A stretch of 53,582 nt of DNA from a virus (taxonomy: Duplodnaviria > Caudoviricetes), in IMG/VR virus record IMGVR_UViG_3300006105_001565, positions 1 to 53,582 of that record; one strand, given 5' to 3'. Under the pieces are notes generated by a model, which worked only from the letters and a program-made list of their open reading frames with translations, did no database searches and had not been told where the DNA came from. The position numbers and the translations under genes are program-made. Shown piece after piece: positions 29,202-53,582 of this stretch (position 1 is its first letter; the number at the start of each line of letters is the position of its first letter).

Positions 29202-29210
29202 ATTAAAATT

Positions 29211-33121: not shown

Positions 33122-33684
33122 AAGTATTAATTATGGTCTTATCGTGTATGAAACATCCGTATGATAAGATGTATCAAGCACAATTAGAAACTTGGGATAG
33201 TGTTAAAGTTGATAATGTTGAAACTGTTTATTATTGGGGAGAAGAATATAAATTGATGCACGTTCCTTTTAAAAAATCGTTGAGTGAAGTATGGGATAAA
33301 GATTGGGATGTAATATTCAGAACTAATAGTAGTTCTTATGTTGACAAACAACTTTTATATGATTATATTAAGGACAAACCAAAGGAAAATCTTTGGATTG
33401 GAAATCAGGATGCTTATTGTTCAGGAGCAGGTTTTTTCATTAGTAGAGATTTAGCTGAAGTTTTAAAAAACGATTTACACGAAAGAAGATATTTTGCTGA
33501 AGATGTTTTAATATATGAAACATTGAAATCTCGTGGTTTTGAAATTAAACCTGGTCAGAGAAAAACATATGGTTTAGACAACGATTTAAATTCAACATAT
33601 CACATAAGATGTAAACACGATCACAATATGATATTAGCAGTTGATGCTTTCCATAATATATTCAAAGATAAAATTAAAAATTAA
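33118..33684 (+). CDS. GT31/galactosyltransferase-like protein
   Basis: RTNSSSYV, SGAGFFISRD, EDV, HIRCK. Confidence 0.65.
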   Translation: MKVLIMVLSCMKHPYDKMYQAQLETWDSVKVDNVETVYYWGEEYKLMHVPFKKSLSEVWDKDWDVIFRTNSSSYVDKQLLYDYIKDKPKENLWIGNQDAYCSGAGFFISRDLAEVLKNDLHERRYFAEDVLIYETLKSRGFEIKPGQRKTYGLDNDLNSTYHIRCKHDHNMILAVDAFHNIFKDKIKN

Positions 33685-35774: not shown

Positions 35775-35788
35775 ATCCCCTTTTTTTT
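35762..35788. terminator. Terminator between convergent operons
   Basis: AAAGGGGA-ATTAAA-TCCCCTTT followed by a T-tract. Confidence 0.75.
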
Positions 35789-38513: not shown

Positions 38514-38515
38514 TT

Positions 38516-39184
38516 TTATCTTTTAGTTATTATGATTATACCGTTTAAAAAATTTAGGGATTCGATACCAGTTCCAATGTAATCGTAACCTTTTCTTATA
38601 AATTGAGGAATTAAACCATCCTCTCTTCTCCAATGAATTCCAAACTCTTCGTTCTCTTGATATTCACCGAAAAAATTTACTTCATCGGCAAGACCTTTGA
38701 AATATTCAATAGTTGAACCAGGTTTATATCTTCCACCACCGTAATTATCCCAATACGATGTTCCACAATCTTCAACGATGTAAGTGCCTTTCTCTTTAAG
38801 GGTTGGAAATAATTCTTTGAATGAAAAAATTACGTGTTCATTTATGTGTGAACCATCATCTATTATCAAATCAAATGGTCCGTGCTTCTCAACTACTCTT
38901 TTTAAAAATTCAGGATCGGTTTGGTCACCAATTTCAACATTAATACCATCTTGAGCATATTGAGCGCAATCGGGATTAATATCTATACCTGTTATTTGTG
39001 CTCTATAAAAATATTCTTTCCAAGTCTTTAATGAATCACCATCTAATACACCAATCTCTAAAAATTTGAATTCACTATATCTTTCGAATCCATTAATGTA
39101 CTTTGCATATTTGTCACAATAATTATGTACTTCAGAACTCTTATCAGTTCCATATTTTTTTGCTATTTCGTTTAAATTACTCAT
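38516..39184 (-). CDS. Class I SAM O-methyltransferase (MycE-like sugar methyltransferase)
   Basis: YGTDK..HNY, LEIGV, GDQ, IIDDGSH, YIVED. Confidence 0.82.
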   Translation of the reverse strand: MSNLNEIAKKYGTDKSSEVHNYCDKYAKYINGFERYSEFKFLEIGVLDGDSLKTWKEYFYRAQITGIDINPDCAQYAQDGINVEIGDQTDPEFLKRVVEKHGPFDLIIDDGSHINEHVIFSFKELFPTLKEKGTYIVEDCGTSYWDNYGGGRYKPGSTIEYFKGLADEVNFFGEYQENEEFGIHWRREDGLIPQFIRKGYDYIGTGIESLNFLNGIIIITKR

Positions 39185-41904
39185 CTTTTGAAATATAACA
39201 TTTGTAATTCGTTATCATTACCTAAGTATAATGTGTATGGTTGGAAACCTAATTTAACTAATCTTTCAACGAATGAATTTCTTAAATCGTCATTCTTATT
39301 GAAATGACCATTATGATATTCCATACCAATGTTTCTAACCTTCATTAAGTTTTTGTCACTTATACCTGTAAATGCTGCGTGTTCCGCTCCTTCGATATCA
39401 ACTTTTAAATAATCTATTTTAGTAATTAAACCTGTTTCAAATAGATAATTAAGAGTATAAGTTCTTACTGTGTAACTACCCCCACCAGTTCCCATAATAG
39501 TGGAACCGCCTAAGTGTGAGCTTTCATATAATTCAAGTTCACCTATTTCGTGTGCTGCAGCTGCATTAAATAATACTGAACGTGGATCGGCATTCAATGA
39601 TAATAGTTTAAAATATCTTCTATCAGGTTCAAAGGAAATAACTTTACTAGCGCCTTGACTATAGGCCCATCTATTAAAAATTCCAATATTACCACCCAAG
39701 TCAACAACAACATCACCTGGAAAGATTGCTCTTTCTCTATTTGGATGTTTATAATAATCTAATAGGTTATAAATTTCGTGATAGATTGCACGTGCCCATC
39801 CATATTGTCTAGCGATTTCAAGTGTTCCACCTTGTACACCTTTTATATCACCAAGGTTTTCTAATTTATAAACACTTGTATAAAATTGTTCTGATTGGTA
39901 GAATGATTTATCTCTTTTCATTTTAAGAAACTCCACCATTTTATCAGATATCTCAGCATTTTTGTTTCCGTGGAAATAAATAATTTTTGATTTGTCTTTA
40001 GGGATATATTGGTAGCCATAAACTCTATTAAAATTTTGTGGTCCTTCTTCATTCCAAAATCTATAAAATTCTTCTAATGTTCTATCCATAAATCCTTCGT
40101 CACCATCGAATGATGATGTGTCAAAATTTGATAATGGTAAATGTTTGTTATAACCATATTTCCATCTCATCGCATTATCAATACCTTCATCATTCCACCA
40201 ATATAATCTTTGATATTCTTCTTCACCTTTGTTTGTTATAACATCAACATAATGTTTGATGATTTCTTCAAACCACCATCCACATTTTTTATTATATGCA
40301 AAAAAACAAATGTGCATATATGGATTAACTTTATTGATATTCCATTCATTAGCTAATTCGGCATTGAAGAGTTGAGATACACCATAGTCATTAATTCCAA
40401 AAAATTCATCTTGAACGTGTATATCGGATAATGGATAATTTTCAATTGAATCGAAGTATTCTCTTACTTTATCTATGTTATGATTAACAACCACATCTCC
40501 GTCGATCCAAATCAAGTTATCGAAATCTTCATTAATTGATTCTAAACAAGCCATCTGTTTCCAATACCATTTATCATACTTAGAATACTTTACAGTATCT
40601 ATTCTTCTTTTTAAAACATTTGGATAATCAAACGGAACATCACAATCTATACCATAAACTAATATTTTTTGATTGGAAAATTCTAATAATGATTGTACTA
40701 ATTTTTCAATCACAGGCATATAACCAATATTACCAGTGGTAACAAACGCAAAAGGTTTGTTCTTTCTTTCTAATATTTCACAAGCGCCTCTTGCTATTTT
40801 ATCCCAATTGAAATTATCGTGAATTTCTTTTGCTTCGGCCATCGCTAAAACTTTATAAGCTAAATGATGATTGGAAACGTGTAACATTTTTTGACTTAAG
40901 TCATCCCAATCAGGCTCACAATAATGGCCAGTAAAATCTTTATGCTCTTTATTTGCAGGAATTAAACCTTGTATTTCAACAGGTATACCTTTACCTGCAG
41001 CAAATTCTAATTGACCACTCCAATTTGAATATATTGATGGTGTTCCACAAGACATCGCTTCAATTAATGGTAGATTCCATCCTTCACTACGAGCACAGGT
41101 AACAAACACATCTCCTTCTTGAAGATACTTTATGTAATCAGGACCACTTGTATATTTGATAAACTTTATGTTTGTATCATCGATACCGTGGAATTTTACT
41201 CTTTCTTCAGTTGTTTTCATTCCATCAAATGGATAAGGATTTTCAACTGACGCAATCAATTCAACATCATCTCTTCCTTTGAAAGTCTCGCCAAATGTTT
41301 TAAGAATTTCTGTGGTACCTTTTCTGTAATCCCATCTACCAAAATGTAAAAACCTAAATTTATTTTTCTTAGGTGTTTCCAAAATCGGTTTGAATCTTTC
41401 AACGTCAACACCTTCAGGAACTAAAAATATTTTTTCAGCAGGATATCCTTGTTTAATTAAATTATCAACCTGCCATTGAGATGGTAACCATACTTCATCA
41501 AAGTAATATAATCTCTTTAAAAAATCATCAGGATAAATGTCTGTTTCCCAAACGTTATATGCGATATTATAACCAACGTAATCGTCATAGAAATAAACAT
41601 TGTTCATCTCTGCAAGAACTATATTAACGTCAGGTTTGAAACTACCATCGTAACCATACATTGGGTGGTCAGTTCTACTACGATCGGCATTATATAATGT
41701 TTGAAGGATTAACATATCCTTCATTTCATCTGTAATGTAGGGTTCACCATCGTGTGGGGTATTATTCATACCTTTCCAACTATCACCAATGGTTAAATTC
41801 CTTACTTTAACTGTATGGTATTTATTAAGTGCGCAAAAGAAATCTTTGCAATGATTTGAATATCCTGTTTTACCAATAAACGGAACGTGTGCTAATATTT
41901 TCAT
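39181..41904 (-). CDS. Fusion: GT4 + GT-A-like domain + FkbM methyltransferase
   Basis: TGY, GRWDYRKG, EGWNLPLIEAM; WIDGD, NDE, FHGNK; DLGGNIG, FEP, KVDIEGAE. Confidence 0.85.
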   Translation of the reverse strand: MKILAHVPFIGKTGYSNHCKDFFCALNKYHTVKVRNLTIGDSWKGMNNTPHDGEPYITDEMKDMLILQTLYNADRSRTDHPMYGYDGSFKPDVNIVLAEMNNVYFYDDYVGYNIAYNVWETDIYPDDFLKRLYYFDEVWLPSQWQVDNLIKQGYPAEKIFLVPEGVDVERFKPILETPKKNKFRFLHFGRWDYRKGTTEILKTFGETFKGRDDVELIASVENPYPFDGMKTTEERVKFHGIDDTNIKFIKYTSGPDYIKYLQEGDVFVTCARSEGWNLPLIEAMSCGTPSIYSNWSGQLEFAAGKGIPVEIQGLIPANKEHKDFTGHYCEPDWDDLSQKMLHVSNHHLAYKVLAMAEAKEIHDNFNWDKIARGACEILERKNKPFAFVTTGNIGYMPVIEKLVQSLLEFSNQKILVYGIDCDVPFDYPNVLKRRIDTVKYSKYDKWYWKQMACLESINEDFDNLIWIDGDVVVNHNIDKVREYFDSIENYPLSDIHVQDEFFGINDYGVSQLFNAELANEWNINKVNPYMHICFFAYNKKCGWWFEEIIKHYVDVITNKGEEEYQRLYWWNDEGIDNAMRWKYGYNKHLPLSNFDTSSFDGDEGFMDRTLEEFYRFWNEEGPQNFNRVYGYQYIPKDKSKIIYFHGNKNAEISDKMVEFLKMKRDKSFYQSEQFYTSVYKLENLGDIKGVQGGTLEIARQYGWARAIYHEIYNLLDYYKHPNRERAIFPGDVVVDLGGNIGIFNRWAYSQGASKVISFEPDRRYFKLLSLNADPRSVLFNAAAAHEIGELELYESSHLGGSTIMGTGGGSYTVRTYTLNYLFETGLITKIDYLKVDIEGAEHAAFTGISDKNLMKVRNIGMEYHNGHFNKNDDLRNSFVERLVKLGFQPYTLYLGNDNELQMLYFKR

Positions 41905-41942: not shown

Positions 41943-43007
41943 TTAAACTATGGTTTTTTTTACATTAATAAACTCGTGTAAATTATGAAATTGTTGAGGT
42001 TCTTTCCATATTTTATTGAGTTCTTTCAAAAATTCAGAATATTCTGGATGTGATTTATCCCATACTTTTAATAACATATATTCACCTTCGCTCAAGTGGC
42101 CCCAATTTAGTATTTTACCAAAATACACATATGCTTTTTTATTGAAAATACTCTTCATTAAATCAAGAAAAATCTTCATCTCTTTGTAATTGTGTGATTG
42201 AACAACAAATGAAGTTTTAATGTTTTTTAATCTTGGTATTGTATTAATGAATTTCAGGTTTTCAATTAGTGTTTCCCATTTACCTCCTACCCTTGTTAAA
42301 TTTTCATAAGTTTCTTTGGTACCGGCGTCTATACTTATCTCACAAGTCTTAACGTATCTATGTATATTAGGCATACTATCCCACATTTCTTTGGTCCATA
42401 GTGAAGCGTTAGTATGTAAATGTATTTGTTCTAATTTTGGATATTTCTTCGGGTCAAAGTTTCTAAGGAAATTTCTAAAACTTACTGACGCAAAAGGGTC
42501 TCCTGTTCCTGTTATGTATAAGATTTTGATATTATTAGCATAGAATTCTTCTATTTCTTCAATAGTAGATGTAATTTCTTTTATCTCTTTACTATCGGCC
42601 ACAATCAACCCAATTCTACAAGATGGACATTTATAATTGCAAGATCGGTCAAATGAAAAATTAACCCATTGAGGTGTTGTGCTCATTTCACCAGTATCAT
42701 AATCGTAATCCTTTAAAATTTCTTGAGCCAAAGGTTTAGGTGCTATCGGCCCTAAATCACCGTTTTCTCCGAAATTAACCAATTGTGATAAGTGTGGACA
42801 TTCACTTTTATCACAATATTTGTAATCGCCGTCAATAATACTCTTTCTTATGTCTTTAGCTTCATTTGAATTCCAAACATCTTTCAATGGTACATCATTA
42901 GGTAATGCTTTTAAAAGCCAGCTTGGACAACACATATAACTCTCATTCTTATGAAGTTGTATATTTGTAAAAGGTAAAGCACATATATAATTCTTCAAAT
43001 CTATCAT
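41943..43007 (-). CDS. Radical SAM enzyme with N-terminal Cys-rich (twitch/SPASM-like) region
   Basis: CNYKCPSC, GDPF, HTNA, ISIDA; N-term CALPF, CCPSW, CDKSEC. Confidence 0.9.
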   Translation of the reverse strand: MIDLKNYICALPFTNIQLHKNESYMCCPSWLLKALPNDVPLKDVWNSNEAKDIRKSIIDGDYKYCDKSECPHLSQLVNFGENGDLGPIAPKPLAQEILKDYDYDTGEMSTTPQWVNFSFDRSCNYKCPSCRIGLIVADSKEIKEITSTIEEIEEFYANNIKILYITGTGDPFASVSFRNFLRNFDPKKYPKLEQIHLHTNASLWTKEMWDSMPNIHRYVKTCEISIDAGTKETYENLTRVGGKWETLIENLKFINTIPRLKNIKTSFVVQSHNYKEMKIFLDLMKSIFNKKAYVYFGKILNWGHLSEGEYMLLKVWDKSHPEYSEFLKELNKIWKEPQQFHNLHEFINVKKTIV

Positions 43008-43477
43008 ATCAAATTTTGTATTTTTTTAAAATTGAAATCTTTCCTCAAAAAACAAACTAAAGTGAATCTTTCACCACTATTCACCTTTTTAACATAATGC
43101 CATTCATTACCTGTTGTGTATAATAATTGTTTTTTTTTAGGCTTCACAGTTATGTTCTCATATATTAATTCGCCTCCATCAAAATTTTCATTTAAGAAAA
43201 TAATAAAAGTATATGGTTCTTTATCTTGATGAAACTTTTCAAGGATATTAGTGTCTTTATTTACGTGTTGAACTCTTATTCGATCGATATCAATTTTTAA
43301 TAAACCAATTCTTTTTAAGAATTTGAAGTCATTAATATTATCCATCAAATTAACACCATCAAAATGATATACATTATCAGAATTGATATTTATTTTTTTA
43401 TCAATATTAGCATAATAAAAATCTATGAATTCCGAACATTCATCATCTCTCATAATATCGGATAATATTTGTATCAT
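43004..43477 (-). CDS. 2OG-Fe(II) oxygenase
   Basis: HQD...LNENFDGGEL...HYV..V.SGER. Confidence 0.85.
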   Translation of the reverse strand: MIQILSDIMRDDECSEFIDFYYANIDKKININSDNVYHFDGVNLMDNINDFKFLKRIGLLKIDIDRIRVQHVNKDTNILEKFHQDKEPYTFIIFLNENFDGGELIYENITVKPKKKQLLYTTGNEWHYVKKVNSGERFTLVCFLRKDFNFKKIQNLI

Positions 43478-43968
43478 ATCAAAATTTTTGTTTTCAAATC
43501 GTAATTACAAAATACCGCAATAGACCATCTCACACCATCAATAACAGGTTTAACTCTATGTTCAATATTATGTAACATTATAACAATTGAATTCTCTTCG
43601 ACTTCAAAATTTTTAACTTCGTTATTTATAACACATTCTAATTCACCACCTTCAAAACTTTTCAGAGGATATATAACAAAAGACATATTAGTAGAATCTC
43701 TATGGTAATCATCATTCTTATTACTGTTATTGTCTACCATATTTAACCATACAGTATCTATAATAACTTCTTTACTGATATGTTTTTTTATTATGGTTTT
43801 TATTCTATTTTCAATATTTGTATTCAATGTTATTTTTTGTTTGAAATAATCGTTTCTTTTAATAAACTTTAAAAATATAGGGGATTCATCAACAATAAAA
43901 TTATCTATAATGTTTTTGAAATAGGAAAGCTCATCATTTGTGAAGACGTTATTTTCTTGAATAATCAT
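43474..43968 (-). CDS. 2OG-Fe(II) oxygenase
   Basis: HRD...FEGGEL...HRVKPV..GVR. Confidence 0.85.
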   Translation of the reverse strand: MIIQENNVFTNDELSYFKNIIDNFIVDESPIFLKFIKRNDYFKQKITLNTNIENRIKTIIKKHISKEVIIDTVWLNMVDNNSNKNDDYHRDSTNMSFVIYPLKSFEGGELECVINNEVKNFEVEENSIVIMLHNIEHRVKPVIDGVRWSIAVFCNYDLKTKILI

Positions 43969-44492
43969 TACATTAAGGATTTTTTCTTCTCACCTCTATT
44001 AGTTTTACAAAATACGGCTATACAATATCTAACACCTTCTTTTACTTTTATAACTCTATGTGGTGAATTATCAACAATCAATGCACACATATTTCTTTTT
44101 GGTTTGAGTGAATTGATTTTATTATTATCTATCCACTCTAAATCACCGCCAATAAAATCTTCATTAGGATATATTAGTAAAATAGCATCGTGCCCAATAT
44201 CTGTGTGGAAGGGATCGCTTTCATTAGTTCCTACAGTTACTACATTAACTCTACAATAATCAATTTTGATACCTTTATTATTAGGTAGCATTTCATCAAT
44301 TACGTTTATGATGTGTTGTTTGAAATTATCATTTAATTCGACGAATTGGGCATTATATTCATTGAAATAACTTTTATTTTCATTGGTTATAACAACAACT
44401 CCTCTTTTTTCATTTACAGTAAAATTTTCTACTATATTATCCATTTCGAATAACCCATCTTCATTGAATGCGTTTTCTTTAATTATGACCAT
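43968..44492 (-). CDS. 2OG-Fe(II) oxygenase
   Basis: HTD...FIGGDL...HRV.KV..GVR. Confidence 0.85.
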   Translation of the reverse strand: MVIIKENAFNEDGLFEMDNIVENFTVNEKRGVVVITNENKSYFNEYNAQFVELNDNFKQHIINVIDEMLPNNKGIKIDYCRVNVVTVGTNESDPFHTDIGHDAILLIYPNEDFIGGDLEWIDNNKINSLKPKRNMCALIVDNSPHRVIKVKEGVRYCIAVFCKTNRGEKKKSLM

Positions 44493-44496
44493 ATTA

Positions 44497-45561
44497 TTAA
44501 AATATTTTTTTATTCATTTTTATGTACTCGTGTAAATTATGGAATACATATCTATCGAAACATATTTTATTAAATTCTTCGATAAAATTCAAGTGTTCAG
44601 GGTGAGAAATATCGTGGATTTTATTTAACATAAATTGAGCTGGCGAATAAGAATTCCAATCTTGTAATCTACAAAAAAACACTTTACCCTTGTCTTTGAA
44701 AATGTCTTTAACCAAATCAACGAATGAACTCATTTCTTTATAATTAGACGATTGCACAACAAATGAACATTTCACACTTTTTAGTGATTTTATTGTAGAA
44801 ATAAACTTCAAATTATTGATGAGATTATCCCAATTACCACCAATTCTCGTATGATTTTCATAAGTATCTTTGGTCGCAGCATCTATACTTATTTCACAGG
44901 TCTTAACATATTTGTGTATGTTAGGCATAGTATTCCACATCTTTTCATTCCATAAACTTGCATTCGTATGTAAATGAATGTACCTTAACTTAGGATATTT
45001 TTTTGGATTAAAATTTTGAAAGTATTCTCTAATTGGTTTAGAAAAAAATGGGTCACCAGTTGTTGAGGAATATAACATCTCAATTGAATCTGCAAAAATG
45101 TTTTCAACTTCAATTATTTTATCTCTGAATCTCGGTATTTCCTTTTTATCCGAAACAAATAATTCACTTCTACAAGATGGACATTTATAATTGCAGCTTG
45201 GATCGAAATTTAGTTGTACATTAGTTGGACCTTCTTGCATTTCACCTTCTTGAGAGTCGTAATATTTCTTTATGTTGGCCGGTAAATCTTTTTTATGGAT
45301 AATTGGTCCAATATAACCACCATTCAAATTAACTAATTCAGCTAAATAAGGGCAAGATTTTCTATCGCAATAACGATAAGAACCATCAATTACTGATTTT
45401 CTTATGTCTATAATTTCTTTGGAATTCCAAGTTTGATTTAATGTTTCTTTATTTGGGATTTCTTTAGTTAACCAATGCGGACAACAAACCCAATTTTCCT
45501 TTTCGTGTATTTGAAGATGTTGAAAAGGAACTAAACATATGTAATTTTTTAAATCGACCAT
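44497..45561 (-). CDS. Radical SAM enzyme, paralog of 41943-43007
   Basis: CNYKCPSC, GDPF, HTNA, VKTCEISIDA; same 354-aa length. Confidence 0.9.
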   Translation of the reverse strand: MVDLKNYICLVPFQHLQIHEKENWVCCPHWLTKEIPNKETLNQTWNSKEIIDIRKSVIDGSYRYCDRKSCPYLAELVNLNGGYIGPIIHKKDLPANIKKYYDSQEGEMQEGPTNVQLNFDPSCNYKCPSCRSELFVSDKKEIPRFRDKIIEVENIFADSIEMLYSSTTGDPFFSKPIREYFQNFNPKKYPKLRYIHLHTNASLWNEKMWNTMPNIHKYVKTCEISIDAATKDTYENHTRIGGNWDNLINNLKFISTIKSLKSVKCSFVVQSSNYKEMSSFVDLVKDIFKDKGKVFFCRLQDWNSYSPAQFMLNKIHDISHPEHLNFIEEFNKICFDRYVFHNLHEYIKMNKKIF

Positions 45562-46109
45562 TATATTAATGAGGGCTTAGATGTGATAATATCTGTGGAA
45601 TGTAAAAATATAATAAATGAATTTCTTTCTCCCCTTTCAATAACCTCAACTTTGTGGTCTGTTTCAGGAGAATAAATCATACAAGTCCCTTGTTTCCTAT
45701 TCATAATATATTCTTTATCGTCAATCCAATATTTGTAATCGCCACCGATATAGTCTTTAGAATCATTCAATTGCACTGCACAAGTAAATAATCTACTATC
45801 ATAATCATCTTTATGTTTGTAAATGAAACAACCTTCAGTGTATTTTATAATAGTACAATTGATTTTATCTTTTTTCAAAACATAACCTAACTTATTAAAT
45901 AGATTATTGAATTTATCGAATAAATGAGACCCTTTTTCTAAATGAAAATCAGATTGTATAGATTTTCTTTTTCTATTATCAACAACATTTTTTTGAGTAT
46001 AGGTGTCTCCAATTTTGATTGTGAACCCTGATTCATACCACTCTAAATTAGAATTTAAAATAAATTCACATTCTTCTTTATCTAATAAAACATCATTATA
46101 AAAAATCAT
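45561..46109 (-). CDS. 2OG-Fe(II) oxygenase (prolyl-4-hydroxylase-like)
   Basis: RKS..., KY..G..HKD, LND..DY.GG, HKV..I..GER. Confidence 0.85.
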   Translation of the reverse strand: MIFYNDVLLDKEECEFILNSNLEWYESGFTIKIGDTYTQKNVVDNRKRKSIQSDFHLEKGSHLFDKFNNLFNKLGYVLKKDKINCTIIKYTEGCFIYKHKDDYDSRLFTCAVQLNDSKDYIGGDYKYWIDDKEYIMNRKQGTCMIYSPETDHKVEVIERGERNSFIIFLHSTDIITSKPSLI

Positions 46110-46112
46110 ACA

Positions 46113-46262
46113 TTATGAATGTTTGTTTACCATATATTTGATAAAATTCGTAACGATTGTTTTTACTTGAGTTTTTTGTGGGTCGGTAAGTGGTGTTAGC
46201 GTTCTATTTTTAGAATCAGCTAATGATATTGTTTTATATACCGGTTTACTAGGTGCTGCCAT
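46113..46262 (-). CDS. Small 49-aa protein (not in ORF track)
   Basis: MAAPSKPVYKTISLADSKNRTLTPLTDPQKTQVKTIVTNFIKYMVNKHS; 8 nt after the upstream stop, 3 nt before the next ATG. Confidence 0.75.
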   Translation of the reverse strand: MAAPSKPVYKTISLADSKNRTLTPLTDPQKTQVKTIVTNFIKYMVNKHS

Positions 46263-46270
46263 TTTAAAAA

Positions 46271-48178
46271 TTATTTATTATGTACTAATATATTATTAGC
46301 AAAAAAGTTATGGTTATCTTGAACCGTTATGATATATGTTTGTGTATCTTCTGGTTTTAACACTCTAATTTCTTTAATTGCTGTTTGACCGCCAGTTGCT
46401 AATCTTACTAAATCACCTAATTGGATTTTCTTAACATCCTTGTCGATTTTGTATCTATTATTTGTCCATTCAGGTATAAATGATGCTAAACCTAAACCAT
46501 TCACATAGATAGGATGGTCGAAAGTACAAGTTAATTGTGTATCATTTGAGAATGTATACGTCACCAAATCATTATGTACAGGTGAATTCAATCCGATCAC
46601 TTTTTTTGGTTCTATCATTAATGTATTTTCATTGTAAGAAAGAACTTCATCACCTTCCTCAATTTCTTCTATATTTTTTGTTGAACCACCTTCCAATGTT
46701 ACTTTAGTTCCCGCAACAAAACAAGTTCCTAAGTTGTGAGTGATGAAAAATGACATAAAATTACCACTCTCCAAAATGAAGTTATCGTATGGGTCCATAC
46801 TTGGAATGTAATATGTTTGTTGGTCATCATAAATTAAAACATCAATTGATGTAATTTGATTTGAGAAACTACTTTCTCCTAATACTGAGTAACCTAATTC
46901 CAAATCTAATGCTCTCACAAATCTTGTTTCATCTGTGGTTGGGTTGTAAACTAACATTTGCGTTTCTCCACCAACTTCAATGTCGCTACCGTCAGCAAAT
47001 GTGATATAAGTTCCGTCATTTGCATATGATTGATTAGTATATAAAGCTACACAAGTTGAACCAGTTTGGAATGAACCGGATGGTAATGTGTTACCTGTGA
47101 AGAAGTATGTATCTAATAAATCGTAATTATCTGTTTCAGGAATACCTTCAATATGATAAGATTGGTATTCATCACCAATTACTAAGTTAGTAACAGAAAT
47201 TGAATTACCACTTATATCAAGTATGTATTCATTATCTAATATACCGTGTGCACTATTCTTAATGTGGTTTGTTGCAAATTCATAATAATGCTTGGAATCG
47301 ATTAAATTATTTATAACACTATCATCATAATTTATGGATGTTGGTAGTGTGAATAAAGAATCAATTTGATATTGAGAAACATAACAAAGTTGTAAACCAC
47401 TGTCATCAATAGAGGTTGCTGTTTCGCTACCACTATCTACACTATCAGCAGCTCCTGTTACGTTGTAAACAATTTGGAAGCTACGAATACTGTTAACTGT
47501 ATTGTTTGTTATCTGTGACTGATCGATATGGTATTGTTCAATCATTGTATCAGGCGTTGCAACTGTGTTTATAAATTCATTATATCTATCTAATGAGCCT
47601 GAAATTGAATTACCTATCTTATAAAATTGATGTGGCTGGTGTAATTCCAAAACCGTTTTAGTAACAACATCAGGTAAAACATCACCATTGAAAATGGTTG
47701 TGTCTAAAGTATTGTAATTACCATAAAGAGAGGATGAATGATAGAATGCTGTAACTGAATTACTATCTGAATTATCAGCAAATAACTTTAACGTATTCAA
47801 TGTTCCTTTTGCATATTCAGAATCTAAAATAGCTGTTTCATCATATGCCATTCTCAATATGAACTTATTCGGAGCATCATCTGGTGAAGTTGGAAAAATT
47901 GAACTCTCAGGAACTACTATAGGGTTAAATGTCGTAATGAAAGAAGCTGAATCAATTAAAGATTGGGATAAATGGTTGATTATAGGTTGTTGAAGTTCTA
48001 TTTTATATAGAACGTCCAATTCCGTAATATTTGAACCGCTGAGTACTCCTATGAAGTCGCTCCAGTCAAAGGATGACATTTGCGATTCTACAGCACCGGT
48101 ATCAGTATTTATCTCAATTAATCTTAAATTCTCATTTTTATCAATTACAAAATCCGCAGAAAAAAAAGTTCCTTTCAT
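46271..48178 (-). CDS. Circularly permuted ATP-grasp-like domain fused to two tandem Hint domains
   Basis: N-term SADFVID...LRLIEINTDTG; Hint2 CFVAGT...TFDHP...LVHN (aa 486-634); degenerate Hint1 aa 312-482 ending ITHN. Confidence 0.75.
   Translation of the reverse strand: MKGTFFSADFVIDKNENLRLIEINTDTGAVESQMSSFDWSDFIGVLSGSNITELDVLYKIELQQPIINHLSQSLIDSASFITTFNPIVVPESSIFPTSPDDAPNKFILRMAYDETAILDSEYAKGTLNTLKLFADNSDSNSVTAFYHSSSLYGNYNTLDTTIFNGDVLPDVVTKTVLELHQPHQFYKIGNSISGSLDRYNEFINTVATPDTMIEQYHIDQSQITNNTVNSIRSFQIVYNVTGAADSVDSGSETATSIDDSGLQLCYVSQYQIDSLFTLPTSINYDDSVINNLIDSKHYYEFATNHIKNSAHGILDNEYILDISGNSISVTNLVIGDEYQSYHIEGIPETDNYDLLDTYFFTGNTLPSGSFQTGSTCVALYTNQSYANDGTYITFADGSDIEVGGETQMLVYNPTTDETRFVRALDLELGYSVLGESSFSNQITSIDVLIYDDQQTYYIPSMDPYDNFILESGNFMSFFITHNLGTCFVAGTKVTLEGGSTKNIEEIEEGDEVLSYNENTLMIEPKKVIGLNSPVHNDLVTYTFSNDTQLTCTFDHPIYVNGLGLASFIPEWTNNRYKIDKDVKKIQLGDLVRLATGGQTAIKEIRVLKPEDTQTYIITVQDNHNFFANNILVHNK
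46277..46723 (-). other. Hint domain 2 (intact Cys1, TxxH, terminal HN, +1 Lys)
   Basis: CFVAGTKV...IEEGDEVLSY; LTCTFDHP; TYIITVQDNHNFFANNILVHN. Confidence 0.92.
46733..47245 (-). other. Hint domain 1 (Gly at position 1, no TxxH, terminal HN retained)
   Basis: GILDNEYILDISGNSISVTNLVIGDEYQSY aligns without gaps to the Hint2 start; YITFADGS; FVRALDLELG; ends FFITHN. Confidence 0.7.
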
Positions 48179-48197
48179 GATATTTAACCTGTTTTTA

Positions 48198-48205
48198 TAT
48201 AAATA
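48198..48205 (-). promoter_or_regulatory. Putative late promoter TATTTATA
   Basis: 19 nt upstream of the ATP-grasp/Hint gene ATG. Confidence 0.55.
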
Positions 48206-48208
48206 TAA

Positions 48209-49051
48209 CTAAAATAATTCTTTTTTGGAAGCGTTTTTCAAAATATAGTCGGTTGGGACAACTGGATTCTTATACTTCTGAGGACCACAATAATGATGAT
48301 AAAAATCACCCTTTTTACCTAATTCGTGACATAAATGGGAAGTTGTGAACCCATAGTGGTTCCCTATCAAAGTTAAAAGATATTGAGCGCCAACCATTGT
48401 AGCATAAAATGGGTCTATTTCCGCGATGTGTTCTTTTATGAAAGATTCATATTTCTTCCATTTTTCAACATACAAATCCTTAAATTTTTCGTTTTTTATA
48501 TATAAAAGGCCAATATTCATCACCGGTATTCTTTCACCCGACCATTCTGGTATCAAATCTTTTATCCTCATCTCAGTCAGATTTTTAACTGTTTTTTTAT
48601 ATTGTCCATTCCAAGTAACATATTCAAACGAATCAAAAACTATGTCAGGTGTGTTTATCTTAGTAATTGTGTCGATTGTAGGTTTATATTCCTTTGACCA
48701 GTTGAGATGTTCAAATGAGTCGAAAACAACGTCAGAATCTAATTGTGGTAATTTTTTGTGGATTATTAAATCGCCATCTATTAAACAAAAATCATCATTT
48801 CTTTCTGAGAGAACTTTAATTTTAAAATGATCCCATAAAGGTGAATTCAAATAACCTTCAGTTACGATTATCTCATCTGCGATGTTCTCAAAATATTTTA
48901 CAGAATTGATATCAACATAGATTATAGTATGATAACCAAATTTTTTTGCCTCAGTAATTGATAATATATAATAATTAATTAATATGGTTTGTTTCTCTTT
49001 ACTTGGGTTTTGTAAATTAACTTTGCTATCATATGTCCAAATTAGTTTCAT
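48209..49051 (-). CDS. GT-A-like protein (DGD family, paralog 1)
   Basis: MKLIWTY, LSI..AK.FG, WDHFK, LIDGD, NIG.L, AQYLL, HYCG..K. Confidence 0.7.
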   Translation of the reverse strand: MKLIWTYDSKVNLQNPSKEKQTILINYYILSITEAKKFGYHTIIYVDINSVKYFENIADEIIVTEGYLNSPLWDHFKIKVLSERNDDFCLIDGDLIIHKKLPQLDSDVVFDSFEHLNWSKEYKPTIDTITKINTPDIVFDSFEYVTWNGQYKKTVKNLTEMRIKDLIPEWSGERIPVMNIGLLYIKNEKFKDLYVEKWKKYESFIKEHIAEIDPFYATMVGAQYLLTLIGNHYGFTTSHLCHELGKKGDFYHHYCGPQKYKNPVVPTDYILKNASKKELF

Positions 49052-49819
49052 TTATATAATTGTTTTTTTTAACATATCATCTATATTATTAAATCGAGGT
49101 CTAAGGTGTTTCATTTCGGGGTCCTTATCACTATAAAATGTGTGTCCAATTAATCTCATCTGTAAGCTATCTCTATTGTTATTAAATCTCGTATTCATTA
49201 AAGCAATGCTCATTAATAAACCTTCAGCTCTTCCAGTTGGAACGTTTCCGTATTCCATATCATTTTCAATTGCAAGGTCTTTAAGTTTATCATAGAAATC
49301 GAAAAATTCATCCATATATTCCGATTTTCTAATCAGAAAAATAGATTCGTGTATTGGTGTAGCTTTATCAATTTCATAATTATTTTTTCTACAATAATCC
49401 TCTAATTTTTTGAAGTAATTATCTTTTGGCATATGTTCATAATACATCCAACCCATTCTCCACCAAAAAAAATAATGGAAACCTGGTTCAAATGAAAGAG
49501 TTTTATATAAATTAAAATCTATCAAACAATCAACATCCAAATAAAGTACTGTATCGTGTTTTTCCAATGCTATTTTACATATCTCTAATTTATCTGAATA
49601 AGATGGTATATCTTTTTCATATTTAAAAACATTGATATTGAAACTTTCAAATATCTCTGGATTATCTGTCAAAAGGTATATTTCAAAATCTGTTTCTTCT
49701 TTCAATTTTTTTATCAAATTGAGTGCGTGATTATAATATGAATCATCTCTTTTTTTATGTATAACTCCTCCCCCCATTTTATCAGTAGAAAAACAAAATA
49801 AAGAAATTACCTTTTCCAT
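49052..49819 (-). CDS. GT-A-like protein
   Basis: LLTD, SDK, YLDVD, EG motifs. Confidence 0.6.
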   Translation of the reverse strand: MEKVISLFCFSTDKMGGGVIHKKRDDSYYNHALNLIKKLKEETDFEIYLLTDNPEIFESFNINVFKYEKDIPSYSDKLEICKIALEKHDTVLYLDVDCLIDFNLYKTLSFEPGFHYFFWWRMGWMYYEHMPKDNYFKKLEDYCRKNNYEIDKATPIHESIFLIRKSEYMDEFFDFYDKLKDLAIENDMEYGNVPTGRAEGLLMSIALMNTRFNNNRDSLQMRLIGHTFYSDKDPEMKHLRPRFNNIDDMLKKTII

Positions 49820-50568
49820 TATATAAAAATTTTAGATTGAAATTGAATTATGTGAGTAGATGGAACTGGAGGCGATTGGTATTTAATATTCCCTACATAG
49901 TGTTTATAATAGTTATTTTTCTCTGAAAATTTTTCAGACATACAAGTTGGTGTGATATTATTTTTTTCACATAAAAGACCTAACAAATATTGAGCACCCA
50001 TACAAGCCCTATTTTTATTTGAAAGATGTTCTTTGTTTTTATATATAAAATCACCATATTTTTTAAATCTATCAAGATAAAGCATTCTGAAGTCACGATC
50101 CTTTATGTAAAGAAAACCTGTATTAATAATTGGTGTTTTTTTATTTTCCCATTCGGGAATTAAATCTTTTATTTTCAAATTAGTTAATTCCTCAACATTC
50201 AACGCATATTCCACTTCCCAAGAATTATATTCTATAGCATCAATGTACATTTCATTATTTAACTCAGGTAATTTGGTTTCTAATATAATGTCACCATCAA
50301 TTAACGCAAAATCGTTTTTTTCGTTCTCTAAAGCAGATATTTTAAAACCATCCCATAAAAGTGTTTTATTAGATGGGTTCAAAATGTACACTTCGTCTGC
50401 TAAATTATAAAAGTGTTTTGAAGATTCTAAATCGGTATATATAACCGTGTAATGCCCATATTTTTTTGCTCTTGATATTGAAAGGATATAAAAATTCAGC
50501 ATAAGAATTTTTTTACTCTCATCATTAATAGTGGGTGGGTTACTGTTATATGTCCAAACTAATCTCAT
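49819..50568 (-). CDS. GT-A-like protein (DGD family, paralog 2)
   Basis: MRLVWTY, IYTD, WDGFK, LIDGD, NTGF, AQYLL, HYVG..K. Confidence 0.7.
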   Translation of the reverse strand: MRLVWTYNSNPPTINDESKKILMLNFYILSISRAKKYGHYTVIYTDLESSKHFYNLADEVYILNPSNKTLLWDGFKISALENEKNDFALIDGDIILETKLPELNNEMYIDAIEYNSWEVEYALNVEELTNLKIKDLIPEWENKKTPIINTGFLYIKDRDFRMLYLDRFKKYGDFIYKNKEHLSNKNRACMGAQYLLGLLCEKNNITPTCMSEKFSEKNNYYKHYVGNIKYQSPPVPSTHIIQFQSKIFI

Positions 50569-51323
50569 ATCATCGATTTTTGATTATTCGATCCCAACAA
50601 ATAATTATCAGGTACTAATGGGGTAATAAATTTTGTGTGTCCAACATAATGTGTATAGTATTTTCCTTTTTTTGCAAATCCGTCGGACATACTAATAGGT
50701 TTTATGTTGAAAACTTCACATAATAAAGACAAAAGTAATTGACTAGTAAAACTAGCAGAATTTTTATCAGTTAGTTTATCTTTATTATCCGACACAAATT
50801 GACCATATTTTTTCCATCTATCTATATATGTTTCTAAAAAGTTTTTATTTTTTATATGTAAAAATCCGTTATTCATAATAGGTAACTTTTTATTACTCCA
50901 TTCGGGTAAAATATTTTTAATCCCTAAATTTGTTAATTCTATAACGGTGTTTTCATAATCATTTTTCCAAGAACCGAATTCAAATGCGTCAACATATAAT
51001 TCCTCAGTTAACAACGGCAATTTGCTGTGTAAAATTATATCACCATCAATAAGGGCATAATCATCCGTTTCCCTTTCCATCGCAACTATTTTGAAATCGT
51101 CCCATAATATTTCATAATCATAACCTTCAATTATGTGCATTTCATCAACAATATCTTTGAAATATTTTTCAGAAAACGAATCAGTATAAATTATGGTTTT
51201 ATAACCAAATTCTTTGGCTTTCAATATTGATAATATATAATAATTGATTCTGATAATGGTTTTATCCTTCTCAGTTTCTTTTATATGTAAAGGGTTGCTC
51301 TTATATGTCCAAACCAATCTCAT
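50565..51323 (-). CDS. GT-A-like protein (DGD family, paralog 3)
   Basis: MRLVWTY, IYTD, WDDFK, LIDGD, NNGF, HYVG..K. Confidence 0.7.
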   Translation of the reverse strand: MRLVWTYKSNPLHIKETEKDKTIIRINYYILSILKAKEFGYKTIIYTDSFSEKYFKDIVDEMHIIEGYDYEILWDDFKIVAMERETDDYALIDGDIILHSKLPLLTEELYVDAFEFGSWKNDYENTVIELTNLGIKNILPEWSNKKLPIMNNGFLHIKNKNFLETYIDRWKKYGQFVSDNKDKLTDKNSASFTSQLLLSLLCEVFNIKPISMSDGFAKKGKYYTHYVGHTKFITPLVPDNYLLGSNNQKSMI

Positions 51324-52147
51324 TATATTAATTTATTCTTTGTTATATTCATATAAGTACCATCTCTCAAAGGATATGAATTAAATCCAATATTGGTTAG
51401 AGTATCAAATATTTTATTCTTCAGATTTATTGTTCTATTGGGTAACATCGAACTACCTTGGAATGTGAAACCGTAGAAATCCTCCACATTATCTTGTTGA
51501 GCATTCAAACTATTCCCCCAATTAACATAAGAATAAAAAACCTTGATCGGCATAAAATATTCCAACTCCATATCTGATATTGTTAAATTGAATAAATAAT
51601 CTTCGGGCATAATACCTCTACCATATCTTTCAACCACTTTTTCATTATAATAGTCGTTGTTTAAAACTCTATGGAATAATTGCTTATAGAAATCTGTCTT
51701 TTCAAATCTCATAAAACCAGTATAACTTGAATACAATCTTTTTAAGTTATGTCTCTTCATCAACGTGTCAGGGTCTTCAAAGAACGGGTTTATAATTGAA
51801 TCAACCATTTTTTCACCATCATAATAACCATCAATACAAAATGGTTGTTTATCAAAGAAGACACTTATATCCTTAAAGATTATTGTGTCTGCATCAATGA
51901 ATATCGTATTGAAAAAAGGGGTATAATCAATCAAATGATGTCGGAAAGAATATGGGTCTTCAATTTTTTCTATATAAATTGGATGATTAACCATTTCGTT
52001 TAAATGATATTTGCTGAACCACTCTTTGTTATCATAGACTAAGGCCAATTCAATATTAGAGAACATTCGAATAGTTCTAAATAAAATTTCTACCCATTGG
52101 TAGTAAATTTCTTCGTTAACTGATATTGAAATCACTCCTTTACTCAT
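51323..52147 (-). CDS. GT8-like glycosyltransferase
   Basis: TPF..TIFIDADT...DIS..F; TG.M.F. Confidence 0.65.
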   Translation of the reverse strand: MSKGVISISVNEEIYYQWVEILFRTIRMFSNIELALVYDNKEWFSKYHLNEMVNHPIYIEKIEDPYSFRHHLIDYTPFFNTIFIDADTIIFKDISVFFDKQPFCIDGYYDGEKMVDSIINPFFEDPDTLMKRHNLKRLYSSYTGFMRFEKTDFYKQLFHRVLNNDYYNEKVVERYGRGIMPEDYLFNLTISDMELEYFMPIKVFYSYVNWGNSLNAQQDNVEDFYGFTFQGSSMLPNRTINLKNKIFDTLTNIGFNSYPLRDGTYMNITKNKLI

Positions 52148-52913
52148 GTATAAAATATAAATCTTTTTTTATGAATTTTGAGATGTATTGATTCAATCTT
52201 CCTTGGTTGAAATGATCCTCTCTTTTTGCATTGCAAACTAAGGGCTCAAATCTTTTTATATAACCCTCTAAATCCTTACATAATTTTTTACTATATTCAT
52301 TGAAAGTCATCTCATCACAAACAATACCTATTTTCAATTCATCATTTATCTTTATTAAATCATCCATTACCTTTGGATTTGTGCAATATATAAAGCTCGC
52401 ATTTGGAGTAACATATGAATCATCCCATTCATAGTGAAATTTTTCAAGATACTCTAACTGTCTGTCAATGTAATCCCAATTTATATCTTTTGGATTATAC
52501 ATTGTTTGCAATAATGATTTGTATTTTTTGGGGAAAGAATAAGCCGGCATTTGTATCTCGTTATCCTGTTCTCTTAGTTTCAAATAAAAATTATCGTCAA
52601 TGTCTTTTATTTGTCTACAATCCCAATCCAAAAAAACCACTTCACCATATTTTTTACAACCCTCTCTAACCGCAACTAATTTATGTAACAAAAATGTATC
52701 TGAGTTTATAAAATAATCTTCACCATATTCGGAAGACTTATCCGACATTTTAATGATATCAAAACCTAAAGATTTCAAATAATCACAATTTTCATTACCC
52801 CAAACAAACACAACTTCATTTAATTTTTTATTTTTAGATGCGCGTCTAATTTCTATCTTGTGTCTGCCACCAAAATTTTCTAAATTACCCCAATATGCTC
52901 TTATGAATTTCAT
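52140..52913 (-). CDS. GT-A-like protein (DWD family, paralog A)
   Basis: HKL, FLDWDC, PNASFIYC, DE, YF.H. Confidence 0.65.
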   Translation of the reverse strand: MKFIRAYWGNLENFGGRHKIEIRRASKNKKLNEVVFVWGNENCDYLKSLGFDIIKMSDKSSEYGEDYFINSDTFLLHKLVAVREGCKKYGEVVFLDWDCRQIKDIDDNFYLKLREQDNEIQMPAYSFPKKYKSLLQTMYNPKDINWDYIDRQLEYLEKFHYEWDDSYVTPNASFIYCTNPKVMDDLIKINDELKIGIVCDEMTFNEYSKKLCKDLEGYIKRFEPLVCNAKREDHFNQGRLNQYISKFIKKDLYFIHE

Positions 52914-53582
52914 TACTTATGTATAAAATATATTTCTTTATTTATTAAATTATCCTTGTACTGGTTAAACTTTTCTTCCTCTTCTTGCCACCATTTATGA
53001 TTTTGTTCTTTACCACCGATAATTAATGGCTCCAATAGTGATATGTATCGATCTAAGTTAATGTTGTTTTCTTTTGCGTACAGAAAAACAGCAAATTCAT
53101 CAGGAACTGTTTCTAATTTATATTCTTTCGCTATTTCAAAAAGTCTTTCTGTTATTTTACTATCCCTACAATATATAAAACCAGTGTTTGGTATAATAAA
53201 ATTTTCATTTAATTGATAAGAATATTCCATAACGAATTCTTTTAACTTACAAAAAAATGGGTTTGTGTTTTCGTTTTTACTACTTTCAATTAACCAATCT
53301 AACGCATATTTTGGATATGCGTATAAAGGAACTTTTAATTCAAATCCATTAGATAGTAGTTTATAAAAATTGTCATCTAATTCTTTTATTTTTCTACAAT
53401 CCCAATCTACAAATATTATTTCACCGAAATCTTTAATTGCTATGTCTATACACTTCAATTTATGTATCAGGCTACCATAACTGTATAAAGGATGATTATT
53501 AGCTATTGTATAATCATATGGTTCTTCTGATATCAATGTACAATCAAACCCAAACTTAGAAATTAGATTAAAATTATTCTTA
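52913..53582 (-). CDS. GT-A-like protein (DWD family, paralog B), 5' end outside window
   Basis: HKL, FVDWDC, PNTGFIYC, DE; the frame stays open past the TTG at 53536 to the window edge. Confidence 0.65.
   Translation of the reverse strand, partial: KNNFNLISKFGFDCTLISEEPYDYTIANNHPLYSYGSLIHKLKCIDIAIKDFGEIIFVDWDCRKIKELDDNFYKLLSNGFELKVPLYAYPKYALDWLIESSKNENTNPFFCKLKEFVMEYSYQLNENFIIPNTGFIYCRDSKITERLFEIAKEYKLETVPDEFAVFLYAKENNINLDRYISLLEPLIIGGKEQNHKWWQEEEEKFNQYKDNLINKEIYFIHK

Follow-up and report, generated by a model that had tools for sequence, protein, structure and literature searches.

The stretch of DNA analysed here (the window) is the IMG/VR virus record IMGVR_UViG_3300006105_001565, 53.6 kb (53,582 nucleotides) of a tailed phage (Duplodnaviria; Caudoviricetes) with about 30% GC. 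CheckV gives a completeness of 16%, so the whole genome would measure roughly at least 300 kb. On the minus strand lies a block of eight genes encoding a ligase-like protein fused to two Hint domains, a 49-aa protein, four 2-oxoglutarate (2OG)-Fe(II) oxygenases and two radical S-adenosylmethionine (SAM) enzymes. An earlier note, written from the letters of this DNA alone, had read the block as an operon with the logic of peptides that are made on the ribosome and modified after translation (RiPPs). The order and common direction that it gave for the genes were confirmed, as eight minus-strand open reading frames (ORFs) run from 48178 down to 41943:

46271-48178, minus strand: gene 1, ATP-grasp-like ligase, Hint A and Hint B in one protein of 635 aa
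46113-46262, minus strand: gene 2, ORF of the 49-aa partner, no family match
45561-46109, minus strand: 2OG-Fe(II) oxygenase 1, prolyl 4-hydroxylase (P4H)-like, 182 aa, PF13640 at 28.8 bits (cut-off 27), C-terminus Ser-Leu-Ile
44497-45561, minus strand: radical SAM enzyme 1 with an N-terminal Cys-rich (twitch-like) domain, 354 aa, C-x3-C-x2-C, NF033640 at 69.9 bits
43968-44492, minus strand: 2OG-Fe(II) oxygenase 2, divergent, 174 aa, phrog_61 at E 3.4e-5
43474-43968, minus strand: 2OG-Fe(II) oxygenase 3, 164 aa, PF13640 at 31.7 bits
43004-43477, minus strand: 2OG-Fe(II) oxygenase 4, 157 aa, PF13640 at 31.2 bits
41943-43007, minus strand: radical SAM enzyme 2 with an N-terminal Cys-rich (twitch-like) domain, 354 aa, PF04055 at 29.9 bits, NF033640 at 78.3 bits

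Counted from gene 1 to gene 8, junctions 1, 2 and 4 are gaps of 8, 3 and 4 nt, whereas junctions 3 and 5 overlap by 1 nt and junctions 6 and 7 by 4 nt. Same-direction genes with short junctions continue throughout from 53581 down to 35787. The eight genes thus belong to a longer array, which spans at least 17.8 kb, and are not a proven operon with borders of its own. The motif TATTTATA, at which the block was said to start, does lie there (48198-48205, minus strand), but the window has 11 copies of it where 15.2 would be expected; being no commoner than chance, it is no evidence of a promoter. Between 35000 and 53582 neither promoter-like nor terminator-like sites rose above those of shuffled sequences, and the scan of this region gave a single strong hairpin, at 35762-35783. 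No cultured relatives were detected among 50,697 phage records, either by blastn with the block or by tblastn with the radical SAM enzyme.

The block forms part of a tailoring island, shuffled in its gene order, that hundreds of uncultured large tailed phages have in common. Its composition was followed across IMG/VR with alignment queries, which were needed because single-sequence locus searches returned nothing. The radical SAM seed found 257 stretches, from which 80 loci were kept and, together with the window, make 81 viral loci, not de-duplicated. The window-led alignment of the ligase found 378 stretches (80 loci kept; 55 unique, all Hint B-type; 29 full-flank), and a seed of ligases that end in a short tail found 273 (80 loci kept; 62 unique; 24 full-flank), where full-flank denotes at least 8 kb on both sides of the ligase gene. 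The company of oxygenase and Hint protein that the earlier note expected was present in 52 of the 55 and 61 of the 62 unique ligase-seeded loci, and a homologue of the 49-aa partner stood directly downstream of the ligase-Hint gene in 49 of the 55 (all Hint B-type) and in 54 of the 62. The 29 window-led full-flank loci held the partner in 26 cases, an oxygenase in 26, SGNH-like proteins in 21, a radical SAM enzyme in 18 and the glycosyltransferase-methyltransferase (GT/MT) genes in 10. All 24 short-tail full-flank loci contained an oxygenase, a second oxygenase-like family and each of two sulfotransferase-like families; a 95-aa six-Cys protein was found in 23, the partner in 20, a collagen-like fibre in 11, a radical SAM enzyme in 7 and GT/MT genes in 4. 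Starting from the radical SAM enzyme, the ligase-Hint gene was present in 62 of the 81 loci, 17 of the other 19 have less than 3 kb upstream and two full-flank loci lack it, which places the enzyme near a ligase-Hint gene in 62 of 64 assessable loci (not de-duplicated). The ligase-Hint protein and its partner, together with one or more prolyl-hydroxylase-like 2OG oxygenases, thus make up the fixed core of the island, and the radical SAM enzyme is an optional member that is almost never found apart from this core. The neighbourhood check that had been suggested for the Hint protein therefore upholds one half of the expected enzyme set as constant, the oxygenases, and not the other (radical SAM in 18/29 and 7/24 full-flank loci). 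Copy numbers per locus vary from 0 to 5 for the radical SAM enzyme and from none detected to 6 for the oxygenase. The immediate neighbours of radical SAM genes are mostly sulfotransferase-like and oxygenase genes, GT/MT genes following in 6 of 54 cases and preceding in 1 of 54.

The product of gene 1, which stands at the centre of this core, is laid out as a ligase domain, Hint A, the tripeptide Leu-Gly-Thr, Hint B and a single Lys:

47264..48178, minus strand: circularly permuted ATP-grasp-like carboxylate-amine ligase domain, residues 1-305, recognised from its fold and conserved residues
46733..47254, minus strand: Hint A, residues 309-482, a Hint fold without Cys1 or TxxH, with terminal His481-Asn482
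46724..46732, minus strand: linker Leu-Gly-Thr between Hint A and Hint B, variable among 53 Hint B-type relatives
46274..46723, minus strand: Hint B, residues 486-635, a complete Hint domain (Cys1, TxxH, His-Asn) with a single Lys before the stop codon

Folded alone with AlphaFold 2, residues 1-305 gave a predicted local distance difference test (pLDDT) score of 85.1 and a predicted template modelling score of 0.83; the model of residues 1-485 reached a pLDDT of 81.8. In the VIA-align comparison the best 13 matches of residues 1-305 were all ATP-grasp amidoligases (Z 7.3-9.6, 186-230 residues aligned), headed by 5oeu (Z 9.6, root-mean-square deviation (rmsd) 4.8, 220 residues aligned), YgiC 7uka and glutathionylspermidine synthetase (GspS) 2io7 (each Z 9.2). 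The fold is therefore that of the ATP-grasp enzymes, though the Z values are modest, and the name ATP-grasp used in the earlier note holds by fold and not by sequence: PF14397 ('sugar-transfer associated ATP-grasp') scores 13 bits against a cut-off of 31.4 (E 0.06, 29 residues), and in a Pfam search of 38 ligase-Hint relatives the N-terminal half was covered by no family and gave no significant ATP-grasp match. Residues D9, E22, N24, R109, D113, K174 and R232 are invariant in these 38 relatives; D9, E22, N24, K174, R109 and R232 may, going by likeness to the motif rather than by superposition, be counterparts of the metal- and ATP-binding residues of ATP-grasp enzymes. The Asp...Glu-x-Asn motif is located at the extreme N terminus, which fits a circular permutation; eukaryotic glutathione synthetase is a circularly permuted ATP-grasp enzyme. 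The gene 1 product is a putative ligase.

Hint A (compared as residues 309-483) aligned best with BIL2 6tmm (Z 18.8, rmsd 1.7, 141 residues aligned), followed by 2lwy (Z 18.6) and hedgehog 1at0 (Z 16.2), and Foldseek agreed on the Hint fold, which here ends in His-Asn. In an alignment of 38 sequences it shows no conserved residue at position 1 and no TxxH block, and it was not detected by any Hint family model. Hint B, on the other hand, is a regular intein/Hint domain by profile (Intein_splicing 46.9 bits, cut-off 35.8, residues 484-634; PT-HINT 34.2; intein_Nterm 32.7) and by its catalytic residues Cys486, Thr-Phe-Asp-His and His633-Asn634. Its +1 residue is Lys635, followed by the stop codon, in place of the Cys, Ser or Thr that serves splicing inteins as C-extein nucleophile, and most Hint B-type relatives likewise finish in His-Asn-Lys; with no +1 nucleophile, cleavage by Hint B is possible and splicing is not. 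Among 136 unique full-length relatives the terminus of Hint A is His-Asn in 133 and Tyr-Asn, Ala-Asn and Ser-Asn in the other three, so that the Asn is kept in 136/136. The residue after this Asn is variable (Ser, Gly, Thr, Ala, Pro and others). Such variability would favour cleavage at the C terminus through Asn cyclisation over splicing.

What follows Hint A differs between two groups of relatives. One to three copies of Hint B are present in 53 of the 136, and in some members (e.g. L044:956-3694) Hint A is followed by a tandem row of two or three complete Hint domains, with two-residue linkers. The linkers in the 53 Hint B-type relatives are Ala-Pro in 18, absent in 10 and Ser-Pro in 4, with Leu-Gly-Thr in the window only, many other forms and up to 12 unrelated residues. 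A segment that varies so freely in sequence and length is not a product, and the proposal that the excised linker is the substrate of modification found no support. In 80 of the 136 relatives Hint B is absent, and a short tail of 10-49 residues directly follows the Asn of Hint A (L016:6325-7809, L012:6465-7952, L074:702-2192, L066:6147-7637 and others). This tail contains 6 Cys in 66 relatives, 8 Cys in 13 and 3 Cys in 1, and in 69 of the 80 the first of these lies two residues past the Asn; the spacing framework of the Cys is kept, while the intervening residues differ from one relative to another. The Cys-rich tail may be a self-released peptide. A role of the radical SAM enzyme in cross-linking this tail was considered and dropped, since the enzyme is rarer beside Cys-tail ligases (7/24) than beside Hint B ligases (18/29).

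The second member of the core, the 49-aa protein, had no family match in Pfam, PHROG or NCBIfam, and its homologues are 46-51 residues long. Complex prediction with the gene 1 product, run with alignments for both proteins, gave an ipSAE score of 0.87 (0.73, 0.87 and 0.87 in the individual runs) versus 0.00 for the best control. Among solved complexes 58 of 80 reach this mark, and among mismatched pairs 2 of 110, counts that apply here only roughly because the alignments were custom-made. At least 84% of contacts are common to the runs, and the pLDDT of the partner is at least 79. In the model, partner residues 8-14 pair with the Hint A strand 444-452, and the C-terminal helix of the partner rests against the ligase half at residues 8-36 and 117-141. 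The partner touches residues 8, 10, 20 and 23 and spares D9, E22 and N24, so it would pack on the back of the sheet and not at the active site. The 49-aa protein is thus predicted to be a binding partner that clamps the ligase half and the Hint half together. One sub-clade of ligase-Hint proteins lacks the partner and yet has oxygenases and radical SAM enzymes. Given the predicted wrap around the ligase-Hint protein and its absence from this enzyme-bearing sub-clade, the 49-aa ORF does not look like a RiPP precursor, and the earlier suggestion that it is a RiPP-type substrate was not upheld.

Three of the four oxygenases of the window exceed the 27-bit cut-off of PF13640 and are thereby 2OG-Fe(II) oxygenases; oxygenase 2 (43968-44492) has no Pfam match and clusters with the other three. 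In an alignment of 23 oxygenases all four have the His-x-Asp motif, as well as invariant His, His and Arg columns, the Asp of the motif being kept in most of the 23. Against the Protein Data Bank (PDB) the profile of this alignment matched best PKHD-type and collagen prolyl/lysyl hydroxylases (3dkq at 1.5e-11, Bacillus anthracis P4H at 3.6e-10), and further matches included P3H1, PBCV-1 P4H and the mimivirus lysyl hydroxylase-glycosyltransferase. Judged by their entry names, the 29 PDB matches comprise 15 protein prolyl/lysyl hydroxylases and 7 PKHD-type hydroxylases; two Tet-like dioxygenases stand among the weaker ones. The mimivirus enzyme is a case of viral hydroxylation followed by glycosylation. 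With protein prolyl/lysyl hydroxylases as the nearest relatives of the phage oxygenases, there is a precedent in kind for the suggestion that the hydroxyls they create are acceptors for glycosyltransferases.

The two radical SAM proteins of the window are 55% identical to each other and share the C-x3-C-x2-C motif. PF04055 (cut-off 29.5) scores 29.9 bits for enzyme 2 and 19.9 bits, short of the cut-off, for enzyme 1; together with the motif and the likeness of the two, this assigns them to the superfamily. Nine Cys are invariant in 28 relatives: C9, C26, C27, C65, C70, C123, C127 and C130 (these last three forming C-x3-C-x2-C) and C222. NF033640 (N_Twi_rSAM) spans the whole length of both proteins, with scores that remain well below its cut-off of 170 and hence outside the family proper; the NCBIfam lists of both enzymes also include peptide maturases, weakly. 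The family profile found nothing in the PDB at E <= 0.01, and a single sequence gave weak viperin-like matches only. The Atlas clusters of these proteins are mostly viral (Uroviricota). In the bacterium Jeongeupia chitinilytica two homologues, 34-35% identical to the phage enzyme, lie beside a 46-aa ORF with a double-glycine leader:

L005:4340-14589: 46-aa double-glycine-leader ORF, SelO-like protein, HlyC-type acyltransferase, two radical SAM homologues, GT2 glycosyltransferase, methyltransferase, HlyD, ATP-binding cassette (ABC) exporter with C39 peptidase

This cluster resembles an undescribed peptide natural-product cluster. A search for the ligase-Hint protein in four bacterial genomes that hold radical SAM relatives returned one 37-residue match (E 4.4e-5).

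Another feature connects otherwise unrelated enzymes of the island. In all fetched loci, two hydrophobic terminal residues, often with a Lys before them, close 86-100% of the unique members of six unrelated families, namely the oxygenases, the second oxygenase-like family, both sulfotransferase-like families, the radical SAM enzymes and the 95-aa Cys protein; of the SGNH-like proteins 69% end in two hydrophobic residues. The same ending is found in 0-23% of the members of thirteen other named families (ligase-Hint, both partner families, GT/MT, GT2, methyltransferase, carbamoyltransferase, nucleotidyltransferase, DUF2061, adenosine 5'-phosphosulfate (APS) kinase, fibre, HD, Hsp20 and epimerase), in 41-46% of two further families and in 32% of unclassified ORFs. 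A frequent form is Lys-x-x-hydrophobic-hydrophobic (also in loci L007-L249). In the window each of the two radical SAM enzymes and of the four oxygenases ends in the hydrophobic pair, as do the five DUF6734-like proteins nearest the ligase gene (minus-strand genes at 41943, 43004, 43474, 43968, 44497, 45561, 48209, 49052, 49819, 50565 and 51323). Gene overlap is not the cause of the tail, because the last gene of the block is tailed without an overlapping downstream start. Since kinship within families inflates the counts, the spread over unrelated families is the meaningful point. The shared tail may be a docking or a degradation signal.

The surroundings of the block in the window are as follows:

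48209..53581, minus strand: seven tandem paralogous DUF6734-like genes of about 250 aa each, directly upstream of the ligase-Hint gene, from a largely viral family
35787..41904, minus strand: GT4 plus FkbM-methyltransferase (907 aa), methyltransferase (222 aa) and methyltransferase plus GT9 (908 aa), recognised by Pfam, downstream in the array
26351-35774, other strand: GT1 and GT2 enzymes and an epimerase
9388-10605, minus strand: thymidylate synthase, 405 aa, covering a 266-position model end to end with about 130 extra residues
2475-5467, minus strand: ribose-phosphate pyrophosphokinase and nicotinamide phosphoribosyltransferase (NAD salvage)

PF20508 matches three of the DUF6734-like paralogues, weakly or just over its cut-off; the Atlas clusters of this family are 57-100% viral among the matches listed, mostly Uroviricota. 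Of 84 related loci with matches, 27 and 22 have homologues of the downstream glycosyltransferase and methyltransferase genes, 54-73% identical, after the radical SAM gene. NAD-salvage genes are known from other large phages. Within the glycosyltransferase island a stand-alone ORF of 78 aa (28965-29201, plus strand) matches positions 147-195 of the T4 major capsid protein family Gp23 (40.3 bits, cut-off 24.4), and a similar ORF was found in another virus record (L087). In relatives a fibre protein borders the island, combining an endosialidase-chaperone domain with long Gly-Ser/Thr-Ser repeats of collagen type (Collagen, E 4e-46; L052:15275-17947, L010:17235-20342 and others), and the island itself also contains a carbamoyltransferase, SGNH-like proteins, an Stf0-like sulfotransferase and APS kinase.

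From these results a working model may be drawn, which we hold tentatively and rate a little short of an even chance: the system would carry out protein- or peptide-directed tailoring around the core of ligase-Hint protein and partner. The gene 1 product would be an ATP-grasp-type carboxylate-amine ligase with a Hint A that is unable to cut before itself and whose terminal His-Asn would cut the chain behind it by Asn cyclisation, while the partner clamps the ligase half to the Hint half. Hint B would be an optional addition that removes itself and leaves the same mature ligase as in phages without it. The core would be served by a variable set, nearly always with at least one prolyl/lysyl-hydroxylase-like oxygenase (four in the window) and with changing further enzymes, which are two radical SAM enzymes in the window and elsewhere sulfotransferases with synthesis of 3'-phosphoadenosine 5'-phosphosulfate (PAPS), SGNH hydrolases and a carbamoyltransferase. 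Side-chain hydroxylation would fall to the oxygenases and further C-H functionalisation to the radical SAM enzymes, after which nearby glycosyl- and methyltransferases may decorate the product. A bolder form of this model, which we think rather unlikely, makes the ligase-Hint protein and its partner the hub of a multi-enzyme tailoring machine to which the unrelated enzymes (oxygenases, radical SAM enzymes, sulfotransferases, SGNH hydrolases) dock through the shared Lys-x-x-hydrophobic-hydrophobic tail; in the sister clade the half-disabled Hint domain would free the 6-8-Cys peptide by Asn cyclisation, as a self-cleaving, leader-free ribosomal peptide route.

Several points weigh against protein- or peptide-directed tailoring. 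No substrate was found, and no ATP-grasp family model reaches its cut-off on the ligase domain, whose assignment comes from fold matches at Z 9-10 and a motif. The members of each family are kin, so that co-occurrence and tail counts are not independent events, and a physical island of accessory genes can mimic a pathway. The collagen-like fibre is absent from the window, and in relatives the Gly-Ser/Thr-Ser triplets of the neighbouring fibre (one representative read) contain neither Pro nor Lys as a site for hydroxylation. The island of the window is dominated by glycosyltransferases and methyltransferases, with an epimerase, a content that would suit work on a glycan as well. Moreover, one contig of a marine gammaproteobacterial metagenome-assembled genome (L089/L090, 12000-51999) carries about a dozen tandem genes that score above the NF033640 cut-off, together with an aminotransferase (Pfam), genes grouped by clustering with three families of the phage island (APS kinase, carbamoyltransferase and epimerase), and SGNH- and sulfotransferase-like genes recognised from motifs only; this context looks more like sugar tailoring. 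The contig is possibly itself a phage-like or hypervariable island. Of the bacterial contexts, then, Jeongeupia points to peptides and the marine contig to sugars. Tailoring of a glycan is an alternative that we regard as possible, though on the unlikely side. The oxygenases and radical SAM enzymes would then modify sugars made by the flanking glycosyltransferases, either nucleotide sugars or a growing surface or virion glycan, and the ligase would join an amine or amino acid to a sugar acid. This reading would account for the roughly 16 kb of GT1, GT2, GT4, GT9, FkbM and other methyltransferase domains and an epimerase around the block, for the carbamoyltransferase, SGNH-like proteins, Stf0-like sulfotransferase and APS kinase of the relatives' islands, all usual in polysaccharide decoration, and for the tandem N_Twi_rSAM genes beside the aminotransferase and epimerase- and carbamoyltransferase-family genes of the marine contig; the sole Pfam hint for the ligase, at E 0.06, also concerns sugar transfer. 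It agrees less well with oxygenases that are nearest to protein prolyl/lysyl hydroxylases, with GT/MT genes that seldom adjoin radical SAM genes and accompany the ligase in just 10/29 and 4/24 full-flank loci, and with the bacterial radical SAM homologue pair in a peptide-export cluster.

A classical RiPP, with the 49-aa ORF, the inter-Hint linker or the Cys-rich tail of sister phages as the ribosomal peptide substrate, appears unlikely to us. The tail itself speaks for it, since its framework is kept and the intervening residues vary, as do the double-glycine-leader ORF and C39 ABC exporter beside the bacterial radical SAM homologues and the weak peptide-maturase matches in NCBIfam. Yet neither a Cys-rich nor a leader-type small ORF was found in the window, where the scan for Cys gave two wrong-frame stretches, and the linker is unconserved; the 49-aa protein is predicted to be mostly buried on the ligase-Hint protein and is missing from one sub-clade in which the enzymes remain. 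The radical SAM enzyme does not show the obligate linkage of a RiPP enzyme to its precursor and is scarcer where the Cys tail is present, and up to five radical SAM and six oxygenase copies would be unusual for a single peptide. Still less probable in our opinion is a small-molecule pathway, in which the ATP-grasp ligase builds a short non-ribosomal peptide-like metabolite, as do glutathione-type and L-amino-acid ligases, and the other enzymes tailor it. The fold is nearest to glutathione, glutathionylspermidine and trypanothione synthetases and YgiC, and the passages drawn on from Iyer, Abhiman, de Souza and Aravind 2010 (PMC2938197) propose secondary-metabolite roles for cyanophage dioxygenase arrays and for dioxygenases with ATP-grasp peptide synthetases. 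The oxygenases, on the contrary, are of the protein-hydroxylase type, and no transporter or resistance gene was seen in the window. To our knowledge, a self-cutting Hint fusion with an obligate small partner has no parallel in such pathways. Hypermodification of phage DNA bases by these enzymes is highly improbable: radical SAM enzymes are used in phage thymidine hypermodification clusters (PMC8989533), and the window encodes a thymidylate synthase with an insert, but this gene is 31 kb distant, the oxygenases are P4H-like in spite of the two Tet-like dioxygenases among their weaker matches, and no kinase or base-transferase hallmark was seen near the block.

The ligase-Hint protein in 378 and the radical SAM enzyme in 257 IMG/VR stretches show how widespread these genes are, and metagenome relatives number at least 606 and more than 1,200, respectively, under generic names at most ('hypothetical protein' for ligase-Hint). 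If the system does modify proteins, it would be a large, diversifying viral system of hydroxylation, radical chemistry, sulfation and glycosylation, and effects on the virion surface and host range would be likely. It would also offer parts for protein chemistry, in the form of a naturally cleavage-only Hint domain and a candidate enzyme-recruitment tail. For genome mining it carries a warning, since genes may together resemble a RiPP cluster without encoding a RiPP.

In the literature searched, supplements aside and including that on phage RiPPs, we found no description of the ligase-Hint-partner module. The nearest published precedent found is the paper of Iyer et al. 2010 (PMC2938197), which, in the passages drawn on here, predicts that operons of hydroxylase, sulfotransferase and PAPS synthetase modify co-encoded collagen-like or tail-collar proteins by hydroxylation and subsequent sulfation, and notes tandem dioxygenase arrays in cyanophages. 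The phage islands resemble these systems in combining 2OG oxygenases, sulfotransferases and PAPS synthesis beside collagen-like or fibre proteins and in their tandem phage dioxygenases; the ATP-grasp-Hint protein, its small partner, the N-twitch radical SAM enzyme and the shared C-terminal tail are not named in those passages.

The individual components can likewise be placed beside known families. GspS, YgiC/YjfC and eukaryotic glutathione synthetase have the best folds for residues 1-305 (Z 9.2-9.6 over 204-230 residues) and the Asp...Glu-x-Asn metal-binding motif, a counterpart of which gene 1 appears to have at its very N terminus. The gene 1 product differs from them in being only 9-11% identical, with an rmsd of 4.3-4.8 Å and no family-model match, and in its fusion to Hint domains and pairing with a small protein. 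Protein prolyl/lysyl and PKHD-type hydroxylases (B. anthracis P4H, PBCV-1 P4H, Shewanella 3dkq, PiuC and the mimivirus enzyme) are the best PDB sequence matches of the phage oxygenases, which are much shorter (157-182 aa), occur as up to six paralogues per locus and bear the additional C-terminal tail motif. The radical SAM enzymes align over their full length with the NF033640 twitch-domain proteins and share the Cys-rich auxiliary domain at the N terminus; far below the cut-off, they form a sister family that is largely viral. Finally, the type A bacterial intein-like (BIL) domains, such as the Clostridium thermocellum BIL domain 2lwy and the Tetrahymena BUBL BIL2 domain 6tmm, are Hint domains that end in His-Asn and cleave rather than splice, and they provide the best folds for Hint A. 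Hint A departs from them in lacking Cys1 and TxxH, in being fused behind an ATP-grasp-like enzyme and in escaping detection by Hint models, whereas Hint B is a conventional Hint domain that nevertheless runs into Lys and a stop codon where the following nucleophile would stand.

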